From a virus, in IMG/VR virus record IMGVR_UViG_3300046318_000171, positions 1 to 64,000 of that record: a stretch of DNA of 64,000 nt. The stretch is one strand, 5' to 3'. Below, one piece after another: positions 1,011 to 52,889 of the stretch. The notes under the pieces were generated by a model. The model had not been told where the DNA came from. It ran no database searches and was given only the letters and a program-made list of their open reading frames with translations. Both the position numbers and the translations under genes were made by a program. Positions within the stretch are counted from its first letter, which is position 1. Every line of letters begins with the position of its first letter.

Positions 1011-4203
<3,193 letters not shown>

Positions 4204-5344: not shown

Positions 5345-5392
5345 AAAAAAGTCCGCCCTGCTGGGAGGAGGGCGGGTACCAGCAGGACGGAC
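5345..5392 (-). terminator. Intrinsic terminator with a CCUCCUCCC-containing loop
   Basis: Minus strand GTCCGTCCTGCTGG-loop-CCAGCAGGGCGGAC followed by T6. Confidence 0.75.
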
Positions 5393-10443: not shown

Positions 10444-12039
10444 TTAGAAAAACATGTTTGAGTTGACTTCTACCGACGGCATGACAAGCTCCTGTGTTAG
10501 AGAGCAAGCAATCGCCAAAGAGTCGACAAAGTCATCGTGAGCGTAGGCCTCATCCGGTGCTGCCACCATAAAGTTAGGGCCTTTGTATTGGATTTCGGCA
10601 TCTGTCATCTGCTGGTAGAAACGCTTCCACACACGCAAACGCCTAGTTTTAGCGTGCGCCGGGTAAGACAACGAGCGACGCTGAATGAGTGCCTGCAGGT
10701 GCTTAAACCTCTTGGACTGCTCTGACTGGCTAGAGGTGACAGACACCACTTCTGCACGCCCCATAAGAATCTTAAGGCGCTGGGCCACTGCGTCACCAAC
10801 ACCGTTGGCGTCTACTCCGATTGCCAGAACGTCATAGTTCGAAAGGAAGTTAACAATTTGGAAATACTGCTCTTCCCAGTCATCCCCTTGTAGTTCCAGC
10901 CAGTTGAGTACTCGATGGTCGAAATAGCCAAACTCATCTGGACGGTCCCAGTCAACCCAGACAACTGTGACAACAGTGGAGTCCATCTTTCTAGCAGGGT
11001 CGATTCCGACCACAACAGGGGTTTGGTGCCAGACTTTGACCAGCTCTTGCGAAGTATCACCGAGCTCATCCATGAGTCCACTTGTAACAAACATGCCTCG
11101 TTCAAGAAGCCATTTGCAGTTATACGACATCTGGAACTCATCGGAGTCCTCTCCAATACGTAGCTTTTCTTTAGAAATAAATGTGCCGTAGTTTTCGTTT
11201 ACTTTGGCGACGTCTCTCCAGTCCCATTGGAAGTGATTTTGTTTCTTACCACGGCCTGTTTGGATTCGTTTGTTTAGCTGGATAGACTTGTAGAAGTTGT
11301 TCTTAGATGTGGTAGGAGTACCGGTCTTAACAATGATTCCTGCGTAGTAAGCCAACATCGGAGTAATTGACTTGGCCACTACAAAGTCGTCCGCTTCCTG
11401 GCACTCGTCAATAACTACAAGATGGAACGACTTCGACTCAATCTTTGCACGAGGGTTTGCCGTCATCATGGTCATCATAGAGCCAGAGTTTTTAAGTTTG
11501 ATAGTCTTAGTTACACCGGCAATCTTCTTTGCCTCGTCATCAATCTCCGGGTCACCCAGAACTTCTTGGGCAGTCTCAGAAGTTAGGCGAGTAACAACTC
11601 GGCTAAACAAAGTTTCTGCCTGACCTTCAGTAGGGGCGAATAAGCCCACCCACAAACCATCCTTGTATTTGTCAAGAAGTTTAGGGTAAATCTTAGCCAA
11701 CTTAGGTAGCAGCACCATGAGCATGGCTACTGTGTCAGCTACTGTTTCCGACTTACCAGACTGACGTGAAGCAAGTGCGGTGATTTCGTCACCCTTACCA
11801 ATAAGGACAGCCTCGATAATTCTTCTAGCCAGAGGCTTCTGGTATGGGTGTAGGTCGTGGCCTACCAAGACGTGCATGAATTGCATCATCTTATCGATTA
11901 GACGGTCAACAAACTCTTGGTCAAGTTCGTTCTCATCTTCTTCAAACTCTTCTTCAACTCCGTGGTCTTCTAGATAGAAACTCGGGTTAATTTCTTCAAA
12001 TTGTTGAACGTCGTCTTCTTCGTCGTCGTACTCAAACAT
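10444..12039 (-). CDS. Terminase large subunit
   Basis: Walker A 'SRQSGKS', Walker B 'LVVIDE', nuclease motifs 'VGIDPA', 'DANGVG', 'HDDFVDSLA'. Confidence 0.93.
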   Translation of the reverse strand: MFEYDDEEDDVQQFEEINPSFYLEDHGVEEEFEEDENELDQEFVDRLIDKMMQFMHVLVGHDLHPYQKPLARRIIEAVLIGKGDEITALASRQSGKSETVADTVAMLMVLLPKLAKIYPKLLDKYKDGLWVGLFAPTEGQAETLFSRVVTRLTSETAQEVLGDPEIDDEAKKIAGVTKTIKLKNSGSMMTMMTANPRAKIESKSFHLVVIDECQEADDFVVAKSITPMLAYYAGIIVKTGTPTTSKNNFYKSIQLNKRIQTGRGKKQNHFQWDWRDVAKVNENYGTFISKEKLRIGEDSDEFQMSYNCKWLLERGMFVTSGLMDELGDTSQELVKVWHQTPVVVGIDPARKMDSTVVTVVWVDWDRPDEFGYFDHRVLNWLELQGDDWEEQYFQIVNFLSNYDVLAIGVDANGVGDAVAQRLKILMGRAEVVSVTSSQSEQSKRFKHLQALIQRRSLSYPAHAKTRRLRVWKRFYQQMTDAEIQYKGPNFMVAAPDEAYAHDDFVDSLAIACSLTQELVMPSVEVNSNMFF

Positions 12040-19216: not shown

Positions 19217-19753
19217 TTAGAGAGTTTCTATTAATCGCACAAACTTAACTGTGCTTCCTTTGAACGATGGGGAATCCAACGAGATAATCTGCGTCGTAGT
19301 TCCCTTACGGAATCCTGCATGAATTGCTTTTCCATCACCGATGTAAATTCCTGCGTGGTAGTAAGACTTGGAGCCTTTGTAGCCCCATACCACGATGTCT
19401 CCAACCTTCGGGTCTTTTACACCCTCGGTTAGGTGACCCAGCTTGTTAGCTGAGTGCGGTACTTCAATTCTTAACTGCTGATAAGCCCAGTAGACAAGAC
19501 CGGAACAGTCCCACCCACTAGGTGTTGCACCAGAGAACACGTACCATGTTTTGCCAATACGCTTTTCTAGTTTGTTTACTACTGACTGAACTCTCTGTCC
19601 TTCAGCCATCAAAGTGACTTTGTCCATTAGTTCAGGTGCAGGTTTCACAACCTGCTTAACGGCTACTGCACTAGCCTCTGCCGACATCCCGACACTTGCG
19701 GAACATCCTGTCATTACTAGTGCAATAACACTAACTGCAATGAGCTTTTTCAT
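19217..19753 (-). CDS. NlpC/P60 family peptidoglycan endopeptidase (lipoprotein-like signal)
   Basis: 'YVFSGATPSGWDCSGLV', 'GDIV', 'HAGIYIGDGKAIHA'; 'MTGC' lipobox-like. Confidence 0.92.
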   Translation of the reverse strand: MKKLIAVSVIALVMTGCSASVGMSAEASAVAVKQVVKPAPELMDKVTLMAEGQRVQSVVNKLEKRIGKTWYVFSGATPSGWDCSGLVYWAYQQLRIEVPHSANKLGHLTEGVKDPKVGDIVVWGYKGSKSYYHAGIYIGDGKAIHAGFRKGTTTQIISLDSPSFKGSTVKFVRLIETL

Positions 19754-20636: not shown

Positions 20637-20981
20637 TTATTCTTTCTCTAATAAGTAAGAGAGAACGTCCGGGTTGTCACGAAGAACAAGAAGAACGCCC
20701 TCTTCATACATTGCGATGTAGTAGTGCTCCCACACATCGGCATCCTCACCCTTCTTAGGAGTGACAGGATTACCAAAACTAAATTTAATGGCATGGAGGA
20801 TTTCATGCAAGAGCGTCTGTCGTTTACGACTAGGAGCAGCAGTGCTCTCAATGACGATAAGATTTTCTCGGCTTAGGTTATAGCCGTAACTGCCCTCGTC
20901 TAGCATGCCATCACGATTGCGGGGCTTCTCTACGATGTCCCAAGTCTGGGTGCCAATCTGCACCTTTTTAGGTAATGCCAT
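20637..20981 (-). CDS. HExxH metallopeptidase-like protein
   Basis: 'QTLLHEILHAI'. Confidence 0.7.
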   Translation of the reverse strand: MALPKKVQIGTQTWDIVEKPRNRDGMLDEGSYGYNLSRENLIVIESTAAPSRKRQTLLHEILHAIKFSFGNPVTPKKGEDADVWEHYYIAMYEEGVLLVLRDNPDVLSYLLEKE

Positions 20982-21017: not shown

Positions 21018-21092
21018 TGGCTGACCATCCAGGGGTCGAACCTGGGACCTTGGAGTTAACAGCTCCCTGCTCTGCCTCTGAGCTAATGGTCA
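21018..21092 (-). tRNA. tRNA-Asn (GTT)
   Basis: Acceptor TGACCAT/ATGGTCA + G + CCA; D arm GCTC/GAGC; anticodon loop CT-GTT-AA; T loop GGTTCGACCCC. Confidence 0.95.
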
Positions 21093-21186
21093 AGGAGAGG
21101 AGCCCCAGCGAGAAAGGAGGTAAACGCTGAGGCTCCCGTACCGAGAGTGTTACAGAGGTGATGAGTGAGAGGAACCCAAGTAACAG
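21093..21186 (-). ncRNA. Putative small RNA (tRNA 5' leader) with anti-SD loop ACCUCCUUUCU
   Basis: 12-bp stem 21099-21110/21125-21136 with a 14-nt loop; second GTTAC/GTAAC hairpin; upstream promoter. Confidence 0.5.
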
Positions 21187-21190
21187 GTCA

Positions 21191-21220
21191 ATCTTAGAAC
21201 GCCCCTGTAGGATTTGTCAA
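21191..21220 (-). promoter_or_regulatory. Sigma70-type promoter TTGACA-18-TAAGAT
   Basis: Consensus -35 at 21220-21215 and -10 at 21196-21191, upstream of the leader and tRNA. Confidence 0.65.
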
Positions 21221-21223
21221 GGC

Positions 21224-21787
21224 TTACTTGATTTCAATCGCTTTCGGCTGCTTCTCCTTAGGAAGCTTCTGCTCCAACTTAACGACAAGCAAACCGTCCT
21301 TAAGCTCGGCACCCTTAACCTCGACGTGTTCTGCCAGAGCAAACTTCAAATCGAAGTTGCGCTGAGCAATGCCCTGGAAGACAACCTCACGGATGTCCTC
21401 ACCTTCAAAGTCAGTAGCAGGGTTAGTGCGCACAGTTAATGTGCTTTCCTGCACTTCGACCTCGAGTTCGTGCTTACGGAATCCGGCAACCGCCAAAGTA
21501 ATCTCCCACTTGTTTCCATCTTTAATGATGTTGTAAGGAGGGTAGGCAGGCTTAGAGTCAGCAATAGACTTTAGGGAGGTTAGTTCATCAAGCAGTCCAA
21601 TGCCCCAACGGTCAATGCGTGGGAACAGGTCTGCGATGGTGAGCGGCTTGTTAATAAGCGGTGGATTAGTTTTTACATGTTCAGGAGTATAAGGCTGCCT
21701 AGGCGAAATACGAGGGTCCTGAGGGGTTTTTGGTTTCTTCCAGTCATCTGGACGAGGTGGATAGAAATCATCTTCACGGTAGTTCAT
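21224..21787 (-). CDS. Small heat-shock protein (Hsp20/IbpA-like) with Pro-rich N-extension
   Basis: 'YPPYNI', 'LAVAGF', 'GIAQRNF', 'AELKDGLL' alpha-crystallin motifs. Confidence 0.92.
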   Translation of the reverse strand: MNYREDDFYPPRPDDWKKPKTPQDPRISPRQPYTPEHVKTNPPLINKPLTIADLFPRIDRWGIGLLDELTSLKSIADSKPAYPPYNIIKDGNKWEITLAVAGFRKHELEVEVQESTLTVRTNPATDFEGEDIREVVFQGIAQRNFDLKFALAEHVEVKGAELKDGLLVVKLEQKLPKEKQPKAIEIK

Positions 21788-32900: not shown

Positions 32901-35073
32901 GTATGTCGATGTATCTAACGACTATCAAGACGCTTTACACTACGCACTAAAGGAAGGCTAGAAATGACTGAAGTAGCACTAAACCTGTGGGACGCTGACT
33001 TATACGGCGATGGCAGTGGCGGTAGAGGTATCAAACTTACCGCTTATCAAATAGACGAAGACCTTGCTGTAAATTCGGCTGTGTTCATTAGCGTCAACTT
33101 GACTAAGGATGACCTACCTAAGCGGTATGTTGTAGACGACGAGTGGGCTTACCCGGGCAGTAAGAAGTTCACTAAGTGGATGCAGCTGTTTATCGCTAAG
33201 CAGTTAGAAAGGAAAACAAAGTGAGTGAGTTCAAAGTAAAGGTAGAACGCCACTACTCGTACGAAGTAGTCGTTGCCGCAGATAGTGCGGAACAGGCTAG
33301 GGAGTTAGTACGTGACTATGAAATCGAAGACCTGGAGTCATTTGAAACAGACGCCTGGTTTGACTTCAGTTTTGCAGAGGAGGTAAAGTAATGACAATTG
33401 AACACGAGTACGAAGTACGTTTCATTTTGGAACTATCCAACATCATCACGCTGGCTATTACCGCAGAAGAAGATGAAGAAGCAGCAATTGCACAAGCCGA
33501 AGACCGCTTAGCACTTGACGGCATCGATATCCAAAGTTTGGATGTGCTTGAAGTAACCGCAAAGAAAACAGGAGAGTACCACTAATGACAGACACATCAA
33601 CCTACACAGACGGTGAAGTACTAGACGCTATCTATGACTTCATTGGTAACGGAGGAACACTAGGGCCGGATAACTTTGACGAGTTCATGGCTACCTTTGA
33701 GGAGGAAACAGATGGAAGCAAATAAGATGATGCACTACCAGTTCGTCAGTGATTACGCAGTAATCAAATTTACTGTGCCTGGTCGAACTGAATGGTCAGA
33801 GGAAGAGTGGGATTCAGCCGCAGACTCTGACCTAGTATCATACGTACACAACCCAGAGCAGTACTACATGGATGACTGCTGGGAACTAGAGGAGGAAACA
33901 AATGAATAATACCGGAACAATAGCAGGACTAACTGCTGACCTCAAAATCCTTCGTGCAGCGTATGCAAAAAGGAACTTGTGGTCTGAGGCTAGGGTAGTA
34001 GATTTGATTCTAAACAAAATCGTTGCCCCTTACGCAGAGGATGAGGAAACAAATGAGTGAACCACAGGGCTACACACAGGCAGTTGTTGACATTTTGAAC
34101 TCACAGCTTGGGCAGTCAATTACTCAAGCGTTCACGGCTGGTGAAGAACACGAGCGTAAACGCATCATCAGTTTGCTTAGTCACTTGCACGACGAGTATA
34201 CTGACGACTACGGCTACACCATGGAATCCATGGCAATCTCTAACGCCATTGACCGTATCAAAGGAATCACAAAATGAGTAAGCACAAACGTCAGTTGTCT
34301 GTACTAGGATGGGTAATCTACTTCCTAGGAAGAACAATCAAAGTACTACTACACCTACAGAGCTCGATAATGATGGCTCAGGAACGGAGAAAAAAATAAT
34401 GGATGAAGAAAGATACCTGTCCCCAGAGAGCATGATGAAAATGATTGACGCTCTGGCTGTCGAAGTAATCAGAGCCGGTGAAGCGGAGTCATACCTAATC
34501 AACAACGAACTACTCACCAACGAACAGGTGACCACGGTAATGAAGGCCAACACCTTCCTGACTGTGTTCGCTACGTTGTTGCTACGCATTGTTGAGCGAG
34601 AGAAACCTGAGTTCGCCAAAATGATTTTAGACATCTGGATAGACAGCCCAGTCAAGAACCTAGTACGCCTAGCCTTTGCTGAAGAGATTGAGGCAGCAGT
34701 TGCCCACATCGCTGACGGCATCAACGAACTAGAGCAGCTAATCAACCGCAAGGATGATTAGTGAAGGCTATCAACGGAACTAAAGTGTTCGGGTGGTGCA
34801 TGTTTCCTATGAGCGACGCCCAACACAAACTCTGTAAACTAACCAACATCAATGCCGACGGCACTACACGCACCTGTGAATGCCCCTGCCACAAGGAGAA
34901 AACAAATGAATAAAGACATCAAAGCACTGATAGATGGCTTAGCCGTTGGGCTAGGCTTTGTGGGTGTGACGGGCTTTGCAATAGACGCAAGCAAATGGCC
35001 CACACTATTCCTGCTTATCTCAATATCCATGGCACTACCAATCGCAACACGACTAAAGGAACACGATGAGTGA
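29979..35073 (+). other. Array of about 25 small, mostly acidic, translationally coupled hypothetical early genes
   Basis: Consecutive 30-130 aa ORFs, most with an AAGGAG/GGAG RBS and TAATG/ATGA/GTGA overlaps; several paralogous families. Confidence 0.7.
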
Positions 35074-35290: not shown

Positions 35291-35580
35291 TGGATGAACT
35301 AATAGACGACTCAGTCGACTTTACGCAAGCAAAGTGTGCGACTAAATCTGATGCTTGGGAAATCTTCTTCCCAGAAGGCAAGGAAGTACCAGCCAAGATT
35401 CGCTACGCTAAGGCCCTATGTGGTCAGTGCCCGGTTGCTATTGCCTGTCTTACCAAGGCTATGGGCATGGGTGCCGAACTACACGGTATCTGGGCCGGAA
35501 CTACTCAGATTGAACGCAACCGTATGCGCAAGGACTTGAACTTGCTTGAGCTTCACGTCAAGAGTTTGCCAACATCCTAA
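35290..35580 (+). CDS. whiB: WhiB family transcription factor
   Basis: C...'IFFP'...CxxC.....C...'GIWAG'. Confidence 0.88.
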   Translation: MDELIDDSVDFTQAKCATKSDAWEIFFPEGKEVPAKIRYAKALCGQCPVAIACLTKAMGMGAELHGIWAGTTQIERNRMRKDLNLLELHVKSLPTS

Positions 35581-37841: not shown

Positions 37842-39317
37842 CTAGTTCTCTATCTGATTACGGATAATCATGGTGGTTTTCTCTTCGCCTAACCCTGCCT
37901 GCTGGTCCTTAACGGCCTGCACACGGTCACCAAAAATCGCACTCAAAACACCCTGTCCAGCACTACGCTGCGCAGTAATCTGGATGAACTCTTTGTTCTC
38001 GTCCAGCTCTTTAATATTCTTCAACATCTTCTGATAACGGTCAATCTCTTGCGACACGTTTGGGTCTGCGTATCCACCGTTCAATTCTTCTGCAAACCGC
38101 ATAAACATTACTCTCTGGGCCTGCATCTCCAACATTGCGGTATTCAATGCACGCAACTGTTCAGGGGTCTTAACCTCTACTGGCAGACTAAACGCACAGG
38201 TGTTTTGCGGCTTAAATGCAGGGCAATTTGACGCTACAAAACAGGTGTCGCACTGGCGCAAACTGGTCACATTTGAACTAACAACAACGCTGTCTTTGAG
38301 GACATCAACACCGTTTTCGGTTTCCACAACCTGCTTGACTTGGTACCCCAAAACAGGCATTGAAACGACCTCTTCTGGGTCTCTTTGGACCACTTCTGAG
38401 CGTTCAACTTTCCGCATCTCCGACCCACTGTTATTAGACGACCCCCCACCCATTTCCATCAAACCCGTGTATAGGGTGTCGTCACTCTTATCAGATAGGA
38501 ACGGGTTATTATTGGTTGTCATGTTGCCTTCTAACTGTAAATATGACCAAACGGCTACTTTAGTCGCTTCGGTTGTGTCGTCGTCTACGAACTTTTTGAA
38601 ATCTAGCCCAGCTCGGTCCAACGTCGCCTTGTATCTCGGTCGGGCCTGGGCTTTCATTTTTTTTGGGTATCGAACCAGCTTCATTCCATCCCAAATGATT
38701 GTCTCACCATTTCTCATTGGTGACAACCACGACAGTGTGCTTGTGGTTGTAAACGGAATACTCCTCAGGTTATCCGGTTTGGCCACTGCAAGGCCGTGGA
38801 ACCGTGTTTGATACTTTTGGACTAAACTACGTGTAATCCCCGCTAATGCCGTCACAGCGTCTACAGCGGCTCCTGGGAGGGCAATGTTCTGGTACTCCTC
38901 TGCCCACTGACTTATCACCGGCAAACCGTACGCTTCGTGCCACACCACCCACAACTTAGGGTCGTTCTCAAATGCGGCTCGTTGCTGCTTAATCCACGGC
39001 AATCCCATTACCTGGCTGTCAAACTCAACCCAGCCCTCAATACGGTCGTAATTTAGGGCGATAAACTCTTCATACTCGGCCGCATAATCCTCTAACTCGG
39101 CCCTTGACAGGTTGGCTTTATCCGCCTGAGTTGCCCCCGAGTCTACCCACACTTTCATCTCTGGCAGGAAATGCTCACCAATTAGATACGCCTTGTTCTT
39201 AGGCAACCCACGCTTCTTCAACCCCCAGTAATTCAACATTACGTGTTGAACACCGCTCTTCTCCAATAGGGTGCGGTTTGACGGGATTTCTACGCCCCCA
39301 AAAATTACCCTACTCAA
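37842..39317 (-). CDS. TGT/DpdA-like TIM-barrel protein with C-terminal Cys4 and helical domain
   Basis: 'VWVDSGA', 'VEFD', 'VVWH', 'IALPG', 'FHGL', 'SW...R.G' occur in the order seen in phage tRNA-guanine transglycosylase-like proteins; 'CDTC..(5)C..(8)C'. Confidence 0.55.
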   Translation of the reverse strand: MSRVIFGGVEIPSNRTLLEKSGVQHVMLNYWGLKKRGLPKNKAYLIGEHFLPEMKVWVDSGATQADKANLSRAELEDYAAEYEEFIALNYDRIEGWVEFDSQVMGLPWIKQQRAAFENDPKLWVVWHEAYGLPVISQWAEEYQNIALPGAAVDAVTALAGITRSLVQKYQTRFHGLAVAKPDNLRSIPFTTTSTLSWLSPMRNGETIIWDGMKLVRYPKKMKAQARPRYKATLDRAGLDFKKFVDDDTTEATKVAVWSYLQLEGNMTTNNNPFLSDKSDDTLYTGLMEMGGGSSNNSGSEMRKVERSEVVQRDPEEVVSMPVLGYQVKQVVETENGVDVLKDSVVVSSNVTSLRQCDTCFVASNCPAFKPQNTCAFSLPVEVKTPEQLRALNTAMLEMQAQRVMFMRFAEELNGGYADPNVSQEIDRYQKMLKNIKELDENKEFIQITAQRSAGQGVLSAIFGDRVQAVKDQQAGLGEEKTTMIIRNQIEN

Positions 39318-46570: not shown

Positions 46571-46932
46571 TAGATACCTTCCAAACCATTTCTTGTACTA
46601 CCAGAATACCCTCCAGGACCGCCAGAAAACCACGAAACTCGTGGCTCTACGTAAATACGGTCAATGGATACAACATCATCAATACCAATTTGAGGACGTT
46701 CACCCCACCCAAATCGTGGTGGGAAAAGTTGAATTTGAGGCAAGTTAGGGCGGACTTCTTCTTGAAGTACAGTTCCACGCATAGTGGCAACCATCAACGC
46801 TTGCTGAGTTAGGCGCTCTTCGTTAGATGACCAAGGGCCGTTATAGCTTGACTTAGGGCGTCCTTGCTGGTCCGTGAGGTTGTTACGCCACGGTTTTGTT
46901 CTATCGTAATTACCGTCGAATTCTCCAGCCAT
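46570..46932 (-). CDS. Hypothetical protein
   Basis: 120 aa ORF, coupled. Confidence 0.6.
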   Translation of the reverse strand: MAGEFDGNYDRTKPWRNNLTDQQGRPKSSYNGPWSSNEERLTQQALMVATMRGTVLQEEVRPNLPQIQLFPPRFGWGERPQIGIDDVVSIDRIYVEPRVSWFSGGPGGYSGSTRNGLEGI

Positions 46933-52518: not shown

Positions 52519-52889
52519 TTGTTCTCCTTTTTATCTAGCTGAAAGATGTATTCCTTCAGCGTCATAGTATCTTTATAGTTCTTCCGCCACTTTCGCACAA
52601 GGGCGTTACGTTCTCTATGGCTTAGTCCGCCCCAGATGCCGTTACCAATGTCCTGGCTTACGGCGGTCCATAGGCACTCAGCTCTTACCGGACAAACACT
52701 ACTTTTGTTTGGTCCAAAGCAATAGGTCTTTGCTTCATCAGCAATCTTCTTGTAGAGCTCTTTGTCTCTTGGTGGGAAAAAGATGTTTACATCTACTAGA
52801 AAGTTTCCCTCGTCATCAACACTCCAGCAAGCGGCATCTGTGTACCACTCAAGGTCGCCGTCACGAGGAAGCAGGTTCTGAAGACTCAT
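52515..52889 (-). CDS. whiB: WhiB family transcription factor
   Basis: 'AAC...IFFP...C....CPVRAEC...GIWGG...ER'. Confidence 0.88.
   Translation of the reverse strand: MSLQNLLPRDGDLEWYTDAACWSVDDEGNFLVDVNIFFPPRDKELYKKIADEAKTYCFGPNKSSVCPVRAECLWTAVSQDIGNGIWGGLSHRERNALVRKWRKNYKDTMTLKEYIFQLDKKENK

Follow-up and report, generated by a model that had tools for sequence, protein, structure and literature searches.

A two-hairpin tRNA-Asn leader in an uncultured actinobacterial phage displays the 3' end of 16S rRNA and may act as a Shine-Dalgarno-pairing small RNA

The phage record considered here is a complete uncultured virus of 91,238 bp with terminal repeats, of which the first 64 kb (64,000 nt) form "the window". 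All genes between position 1 and about 23.5 kb of the window are carried on the minus strand. Among them is a lipoprotein with an NlpC/P60 peptidoglycan-hydrolase domain and the lipobox LVMTGC (19217-19753), with orthologues in two related genomes (G002 and G003); its ribosome binding site (RBS), GAAAGGUAGGUCGC, lies in the loop of a weak hairpin and is conserved nearly base for base in relatives. There is no close relative among cultured phages, and DNA similarity to these is confined to the tRNA. Two WhiB-family genes, an actinobacterial-phage hallmark, are present (Table 1), and among 14 control genomes Corynebacterium alone has this family; the host is therefore an actinobacterium, placed to phylum only. 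The phage ribonucleotide reductase is closest to those of Actinomycetia phage DSL-LC01 (77%), whose host is itself a prediction (PMC10611076), and Mycobacterium phage Gaia (58%). The M78-like gene described below is also seen in metagenome-assembled genome (MAG) bins labelled Saccharibacteria, Beijerinckiaceae, Chitinophagales and Aquiluna, labels that conflict as a guide to the host.

At the locus itself (Table 1), hsp20 is followed on the same strand by a sigma-70-type promoter beginning 3 nt past its stop codon, a 98-nt leader, a bona fide tRNA-Asn gene and the M78-like gene, the leader filling the space between the promoter and the mature 5' end of the tRNA. The order of promoter, leader and tRNA was described in an earlier note on the same DNA and is confirmed, as are its two leader hairpins, one of which exposes the 16S rRNA 3' tail. 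No terminator was found between hsp20 and the promoter. The tRNA-Asn gene is the only tRNA gene in the 91,238-bp genome and would be co-transcribed with the leader. RNase P generally releases the 5' leaders of tRNAs, and from this role a cut would be expected between 21093 and 21092.

Table 1. Features of the leader-tRNA locus, its neighbors and the WhiB-family genes (window coordinates), and loops of the corresponding hairpins in related phages (percentages are Hsp20 identities)
Feature	Position (nt)	Strand	Basis or remark
hsp20, 187 aa, upstream neighbor	21224..21787	-	PF00011, phrog_432; conserved neighbor
Promoter, sigma-70 type, TTGACA-18-TAAGAT	21191..21220	-	10/12 matches; -35 TTGACA 21220-21215, 18-nt spacer, -10 TAAGAT 21196-21191
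Hairpin 1, UGUUAC/GUAACA stem, CU-rich interior	21148..21185	-	MFE fold
AUCACCUC in hairpin 1 interior	21155..21162	-	16S positions -15 to -8; includes CACCU
Hairpin 2, 13-bp GC-rich stem, open 14-nt loop UUUACCUCCUUUCU	21098..21137	-	MFE and centroid folds; 5' arm 21137-21125, loop 21124-21111, 3' arm 21110-21098
11-mer ACCUCCUUUCU, the last 11 nt of actinobacterial 16S rRNA	21111..21121	-	sequence identity
Conserved core CCUUUC	21112..21117	-	within ACCUCCUUUCU
5-nt spacer CUCCU, hairpin 2 to tRNA 5' end	21093..21097	-	sequence
tRNA-Asn (GTT), encoded CCA	21018..21092	-	ARAGORN; Rfam tRNA 59 bits
M78-like HExxH protein, 114 aa, downstream neighbor	20637..20981	-	AAGGAG SD; synteny marker
WhiB-family gene	35323..35526	+	actinobacterial-phage hallmark
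WhiB-family gene	52599..52847	-	actinobacterial-phage hallmark
L020 (genome G001, 46%), hairpin 1			loop UUCCUCCUUUCUUU
L020, hairpin 2			loop UUAUCCCCCUUUC
L019 (88%), hairpin 1			loop UUCUUCUCCUUUC
L019, hairpin 2			loop CCCCUUCU
L015 (83%), hairpin 1			loop UUUUCCCCUUUCUU
L065, hairpin 1			loop UUUUUCCCUUUCUU
L112, single hairpin			loop UCUACCCUUUCUU

The predicted fold of the leader is unusually stable, at -35.1 kcal/mol compared with -20.9 +/- 2.7 for shuffled sequences (z = -5.2; none of 200 shuffles as stable). The stem of hairpin 2 includes a G-U at its outermost pair and at one internal pair, and MFE and centroid folding both predict its stem and unpaired loop, whether or not the tRNA is included; hairpin 1 has a 14-nt apical loop, UCCUCUCACUCAUC, in the MFE fold. 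Together with the minus-strand promoter, this fits the suggestion that the leader is a promoter-driven, structured non-coding RNA, as far as can be predicted from sequence. Rfam searches (E <= 10 for the window region, E <= 5 for six related loci) gave no family beyond tRNA, apart from a sub-threshold chance match to a microRNA. The idea that the leader is a captured 16S fragment was dropped, there being no small-subunit (SSU) rRNA match in the leader region.

The resemblance to 16S rRNA is exact over the length of the 11-mer. The 16S rRNA of Microbacteriaceae ends in GGAUCACCUCCUUUCU, and of 41 genomes from the family to which an Aquiluna MAG belongs, 32 contain the tail sequence GGATCACCTCCTTTCT, in 1-4 copies (as expected of rRNA-operon copy number) and with no hits for the reversed control; in one of these genomes it occupies the final positions of the SSU rRNA model. 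The statement that actinobacterial 16S rRNA ends in the loop sequence is thereby borne out, and the hairpin 2 loop therefore carries the last 11 nt of the likely host's 16S rRNA. The upstream part of the tail is a different matter. GATC has no sites in the window, where about 160 would be expected, and all GATC-containing hexamers have zero counts in the coding sequences of four related genomes (G000-G003), which suggests strong restriction avoidance; the leader is therefore unable to carry the GAUCACC part of the 16S tail. Read on the plus strand, the same bases form a perfect Shine-Dalgarno (SD) sequence, AGAAAGGAGGT, after which comes AAACGCTGAGGC; no start codon (ATG, GTG or TTG) stands at SD spacing, just as the earlier note had it; the plus-strand GTG nearest to it is at 21158, antisense within the leader. 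A micro-ORF on the opposite strand fed by this SD was considered and rejected, with no start codon at that place in the window and only tiny, non-conserved frames in L020 and L019.

Such a match could be accidental. ACCTCCTTTCT occurs once, on either strand, in the window and in the whole 91-kb genome, and shuffled windows contain it 0.05 times on average, with a match in 5 of 100 shuffles. A unique 11-mer of this kind is thus expected in about 5% of such windows, and this one was picked after the fact. Pyrimidine-rich hairpin loops are also frequent in these phages, and hairpin 2 might be no more than an ordinary terminator or punctuation hairpin of hsp20 with a chance likeness to the 16S tail. 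This is improbable. Intrinsic terminators were defined by a GC-rich stem, a loop of 3-8 nt and a U-rich tail, and the terminator scan was negative at 21098-21137, where a 14-nt loop is combined with the tail UCUCCUU (UCUCCUUG); moreover, a conserved promoter separates hsp20 from the hairpins, and the motif and length of the loop recur in relatives on wholly different stems.

These relatives were reached by a 41-member Hsp20 alignment, a 38-member alignment of the M78-like protein and a tRNA-Asn-type pattern, with many Hsp20 relatives at 60-91% identity left out of the locus comparison. An exact 17-mer of the loop and its flanks proved useless as a relative finder: it hit seven IMG/VR loci, all reverse complements of ordinary SD-ATG sites, and no relatives. 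The same layout is found behind hsp20 or the M78-like gene in diverged phages (Hsp20 identity 42-88%). In L020, L019, L065, L112, L173, and L189 the first hairpin comes 4-10 nt after a TTGACA-16/18-TAnnnT promoter, and folding z-scores for the module lie between -3.2 and -6.0. Hairpin 1 of L019, L015, L020, and L065 lies in the same place and has an AU-rich stem and a CU-rich loop of 13-14 nt. About 100 other phage tRNA-Asn leaders consist, nearly all of them, of a promoter and a few bases, another tRNA or the end of a coding sequence; the long leader is therefore an inserted module rather than a general property of tRNA leaders.

What is kept among the relatives is a short word in the loop. 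All ten CU-rich loops examined contain CCUUUC, and each is 13-14 nt long on a stem sharing no sequence with the others (hairpin 2 of the window, both hairpins of L020, hairpin 1 of L019, L015, and L065, the single hairpin of L112, two of L131 and one of L188). Its flanks vary by phage (CCUCC, UCUCC, CCCC, UCCC, ACCC, UUCC or GUCC). Stems at orthologous positions could not be aligned, and a seven-way alignment of terminator-type relatives matched just the terminator and UCCUUUC, which was invariant between varying flanks. Retention of CU-rich, anti-SD-like loops on unrelated stems is as expected if the loop is the working part. The conservation of the loop anticipated in the earlier note therefore holds for the motif and the loop size, but not for the exact 11-mer: within 170 nt past the hsp20 stop codon, the 16S tail is matched over at most 11 nt in the window, 10 in L066 and 9 in L019, over 7 nt in six others and over 4-6 nt in most of the 96 distinct regions. 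Three phages (L173, L262, and L245) have a GC-rich hairpin with a small, non-pyrimidine loop (UUUCGG, UAUUAG) at the same position, so that the CU loop must be dispensable in those phages. Counted over 3.9 Mb on both strands, CCTTTC in loops of 12-15 nt was found 25 times compared with 11.7 expected, a modest enrichment that ranks 20th among all hexamers; its complement showed none in the same count.

What comes at the end of the module differs between relatives and may be a terminator, a gene or a tmRNA-like element. L020 resembles the window in having a tRNA-Asn after two hairpins. A terminator-like stem follows hairpin 1 in L065. L112 has no tRNA, and its M78-like gene comes directly after the hairpin and a U-tract; U-tracts also follow the last hairpin in L065, L131, L162, and L188. 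In more distant relatives (L131, L137, L188, L126, L162, L176, L189) the units are free-standing, downstream of the M78-like gene: an extended -10 promoter leads into one or two hairpins, and a strong terminator closes the unit. This predicted promoter-hairpin(s)-terminator layout is the anatomy of a free-standing sRNA gene. In L131 the motif is presented twice, in the successive loops UUUCCUUUCAUUUU and CUUCCUUUCUGUC.

Several other structured elements were noted in these genomes. An element of about 83 nt resembling the tRNA-like domain of tmRNA is found in L015 (2128-2210), L019 (~394-480) and L173 (~1050-1131), and also in L245 and L287, in several relatives placed after the hairpin module and before tRNA-Asn; the window lacks it. 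Its acceptor stem has a G3:U70 pair, and besides a T arm there is an oversized "anticodon" loop with AAAGCCGC-AGUCGGAG; the Rfam tmRNA score in L015 is 33 bits (cut-off 47), and there is no ARAGORN call. L014, whose M78-like protein is 66% identical, has a full tmRNA gene (3359-3690, tag AESRSAFALAA) adjoining tRNA-Met, tRNA-Asn, and tRNA-Val. In L065, the sequence directly upstream of the called tRNA-Asn (~2530-2575) reads like the 5' half of a second one (GACCAUAGCUCAAUCGGCAGAGCA...) and may be a duplicated or interrupted tRNA. A strongly conserved intrinsic terminator lies past the major-head operon in four phages (window 5350-5392, minus strand; G001 71195-71238; G002 39178-39221; G003 10873-10915), with a stem of 14-15 bp and a 13-14-nt loop, (U)ACCCGCCCUCCUC with an anti-SD-like CCCUCCUC, followed by a U-tract; the four phages, whose GC content is 41-49%, have almost the same stem and loop. 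Finally, apparently homologous 13-bp hairpins in G001 (34961-35004, minus strand) and G003 (46695-46741, plus strand), GUGGGAGACCAGG and GUGGGGAGCCAGA, have loops of 17-20 nt that are 88% and 75% pyrimidine and include CCCUUCU or CCUUUCU; the window yielded no counterpart.

CCUUUC corresponds to the 3'-terminal stretch of the anti-SD, and its complement is treated like an SD word in these phages. In their coding sequences, words complementary to the 16S tail are avoided relative to synonymous-codon shuffles, with observed/expected ratios (O/E) of 0.37 for GAAAGG (z = -5.1), 0.24 for AGGAGG and 0.41 for GAGGAG. GAAAGG therefore behaves as an SD word here, and on the authors' reading seven of its eight mRNA-sense occurrences in the window are just upstream of called gene starts. 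The depletion of GAAAGG was rejected as a signal of sRNA targeting in particular: it is exceptional by a Markov model, and by synonymous-codon shuffling it reflects general avoidance of SD-like words.

The reading preferred here, still tentative and put at slightly under an even chance, is that the leader is a small RNA that pairs with SD regions and is released in this phage by RNase P. It would be this phage's copy of a conserved small-RNA module of uncultured, probably freshwater, actinobacterial phages. The host-type promoter would fire straight into the one or two hairpins, with the leader-tRNA unit presumably transcribed early by host RNA polymerase. Loops of 13-14 nt would present CCUUUC, extended in the window to the full 16S tail ACCUCCUUUCU, and cleavage by RNase P at the 5' end of tRNA-Asn would release a roughly 90-nt RNA, with hairpin 2 protecting its 3' end and lending it stability. 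The open loops could then pair in trans with purine-rich SD regions (GAAAGG, GAAAGGAGG, GGAGGUAAA) on particular mRNAs and so block access by ribosomes, for which the C-rich-loop sRNAs of Gram-positive bacteria and the cuckoo RNAs would be precedents. The RNA lacks its own terminator in both the window phage and G001, and tRNA 5' processing would therefore define its 3' end; alternatively, weak termination at hairpin 2 would give a nearly identical RNA. The proposal of release by RNase P via the tRNA thus suits this phage and one distant relative (L020/G001), but elsewhere the module has its own terminator or other features at its end.

An accessible seed that is conserved while its scaffold varies is expected of trans-acting, SD-occluding sRNAs, and CCUUUC in the ten loops shows this pattern. 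The architecture as a whole is, by analogy, that of sRNAs with pyrimidine-loop pairing seeds: a promoter at the 5' end, one invariant word, a free scaffold, duplication of the word and often a terminator. C-rich loops are however not confined to the module: large hairpins elsewhere in these phages, such as the terminator at 5350-5392, have them too, and the pattern may in part be a general style of loop.

Two candidate targets can be named. No other non-self site in the genome complements the loop as well as the RBS of the gene at 33391-33585 (GAGGAGGTAAA; -16.7 kcal/mol), which would pair with the 5' part of the hairpin 2 loop. In each of the four genomes compared, the SD of the major head gene (upstream of 6989 in the window) is GAAAGGA(G), where pairing with the loops is limited to a core of 6-7 nt in each phage, without co-variation; among the candidates, none was found whose complementarity changes in step with the loops. 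Pairing in cis, either with the AAGGAG of the gene downstream or with the hsp20 RBS (GAAAGAGA), was considered and discarded, at no more than 5-6 bp and not kept in L112. The earlier note had envisaged occlusion of strong SD sites in general, which is unlikely to be the point because the canonical CCUCC core is not conserved and the phage's own genes rely heavily on GGAGG/AGGAG SDs.

A promoter followed by two hairpins also suits leaders that act only on their own transcript, by protecting its 5' end, assisting tRNA processing, or through attenuation or RNA polymerase read-through; the pyrimidine loops would then be contact or spacer elements rather than pairing seeds. The put RNAs of phage HK022, two stems close to the early promoters, act in cis on RNA polymerase to allow read-through of terminators, and by sequence alone the position of the leader and its two hairpins fit this model. 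The module always starts where transcription is predicted to begin, terminators or U-tracts come after it in the five relatives noted above, and the leftward operon of the window has further terminators at 19862-19836, 13233-13191, and 5392-5350. In some relatives a plain hairpin alone occupies this place. A hairpin for stability or processing, on the other hand, needs no loop of 13-14 nt with an invariant CCUUUC, and both the two same-motif loops of L131 and the extension of the 16S-tail match to 9-11 nt in three phages speak for recognition of the sequence through base-pairing; Rfam has no put-like family to match against. A purely cis-acting leader is accordingly a real but rather unlikely alternative to the SD-pairing small RNA.

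The loops might instead mimic the single-stranded 16S tail so as to occupy a protein that recognizes it, either a host toxin that cleaves the anti-SD, from a toxin-antitoxin or abortive-infection system, or a pyrimidine binder such as ribosomal protein S1. The nuclease version was raised in the earlier note, and nucleases that take the anti-SD off 16S rRNA do exist: MazF-mt11 cuts between the C and the A of CACCU, removing exactly the terminal 11 nt of mycobacterial 16S rRNA (PMC12274833), and RelE1 likewise releases the anti-SD region (PMC12620021). Hairpin 1 of the window contains AUCACCUC, with its CACCU, and hairpin 2 the sequence of the 11-nt product, an exact match that makes the idea directly testable in vitro with known enzymes. 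CACCU is, however, confined to the window's copy, and the relatives keep just CCUUUC between variable flanks, which makes for poor mimicry of the tail. Nor do the phage coding sequences avoid CACCU, CUCCU or UUCCU (O/E 0.93-1.23), and there is therefore no sign of pressure from such an RNase. A decoy or sponge of some kind is for these reasons unlikely. Its most specific form, an anti-defense RNA produced in bulk with the tRNA by RNase P whose CACCU (loop 1) and ACCUCCUUUCU (loop 2) would soak up abortive toxins of the MazF-mt11 or RelE1 kind, is less likely again.

If the module works as an SD-pairing small RNA, a whole group of abundant freshwater actinobacterial phages would have its own RBS-directed small RNA, made in this phage as a tRNA leader. 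As far as is known, the literature searched holds no description from an actinophage of either a phage-encoded RBS-directed sRNA or an sRNA made as a tRNA leader. To our knowledge, Actinobacteria lack Hfq and their small-RNA regulation is poorly understood. The module would offer an experimental handle: the cassette is short, six bases of the loop are invariant, and two phage genes are candidate targets.

Among known small RNAs, the closest in appearance are the cuckoo or alpha-r14 RNAs of Alphaproteobacteria (CcsR1-4, NfeR1; RF02344), which have two to four adjacent hairpins with CCUCCUCCC loops on freely varying stems (PMC4615179). The leader is like them in its two adjacent hairpins with variable stems and pyrimidine-rich, anti-SD-like loops, and in both groups homology is visible in the loop motif and architecture only. 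It differs in the motif itself: its loops, UUUACCUCCUUUCU and UCCUCUCACUCAUC, and the family core CCUUUC lack the CCUCCUCCC present in every cuckoo loop, the corresponding element being CCUUUC or ACCUCCUUUCU, and the RF02344 covariance model gave no match. Cuckoo RNAs are also chromosomal, whereas the leader is an element of a phage of an actinobacterial host and is fused to a tRNA gene. The 6C sRNA of Actinobacteria (B11; RF01066) shares the host phylum, two hairpins and C-rich loops with the leader, and pairs through these loops with mRNA targets without a chaperone or Hfq (PMC6486639). Its loops are however runs of C for G-rich sites, whereas those of the phage-borne leader are mixed C and U and match the 16S tail. 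The leader has no RF01066 match and lacks two loops with runs of at least six C; the loop of hairpin 2 has five, not contiguous.

In Bacillota, C-rich-loop sRNAs such as the RNAIII hairpins and RsaE/RoxS use UCCC/CCUC loops to pair with SD regions and block initiation. These belong to another phylum, have another motif and no sequence relationship to the leader, and their targets are experimentally shown, whereas the leader has candidates only. Stable by-products of tRNA precursors are known as well: the 3' external spacer of the E. coli glyW-cysT-leuZ transcript is an sRNA sponge, and the tRNA cluster of phage T4 yields the stable RNAs 1 and 2. The likeness here is that of a non-tRNA RNA derived from a tRNA transcript and freed by tRNA-processing enzymes; those RNAs are however 3' or internal pieces with other sequences and functions, whereas the leader is a 5' piece whose coupling to a tRNA is not family-wide. 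In the way it would work, the leader resembles the cuckoo, 6C and RsaE kind while departing from their defining motifs and models, and it may be seen as a variant carried by phages, whose seed differs and whose biogenesis would, in this genome, be coupled to a tRNA.
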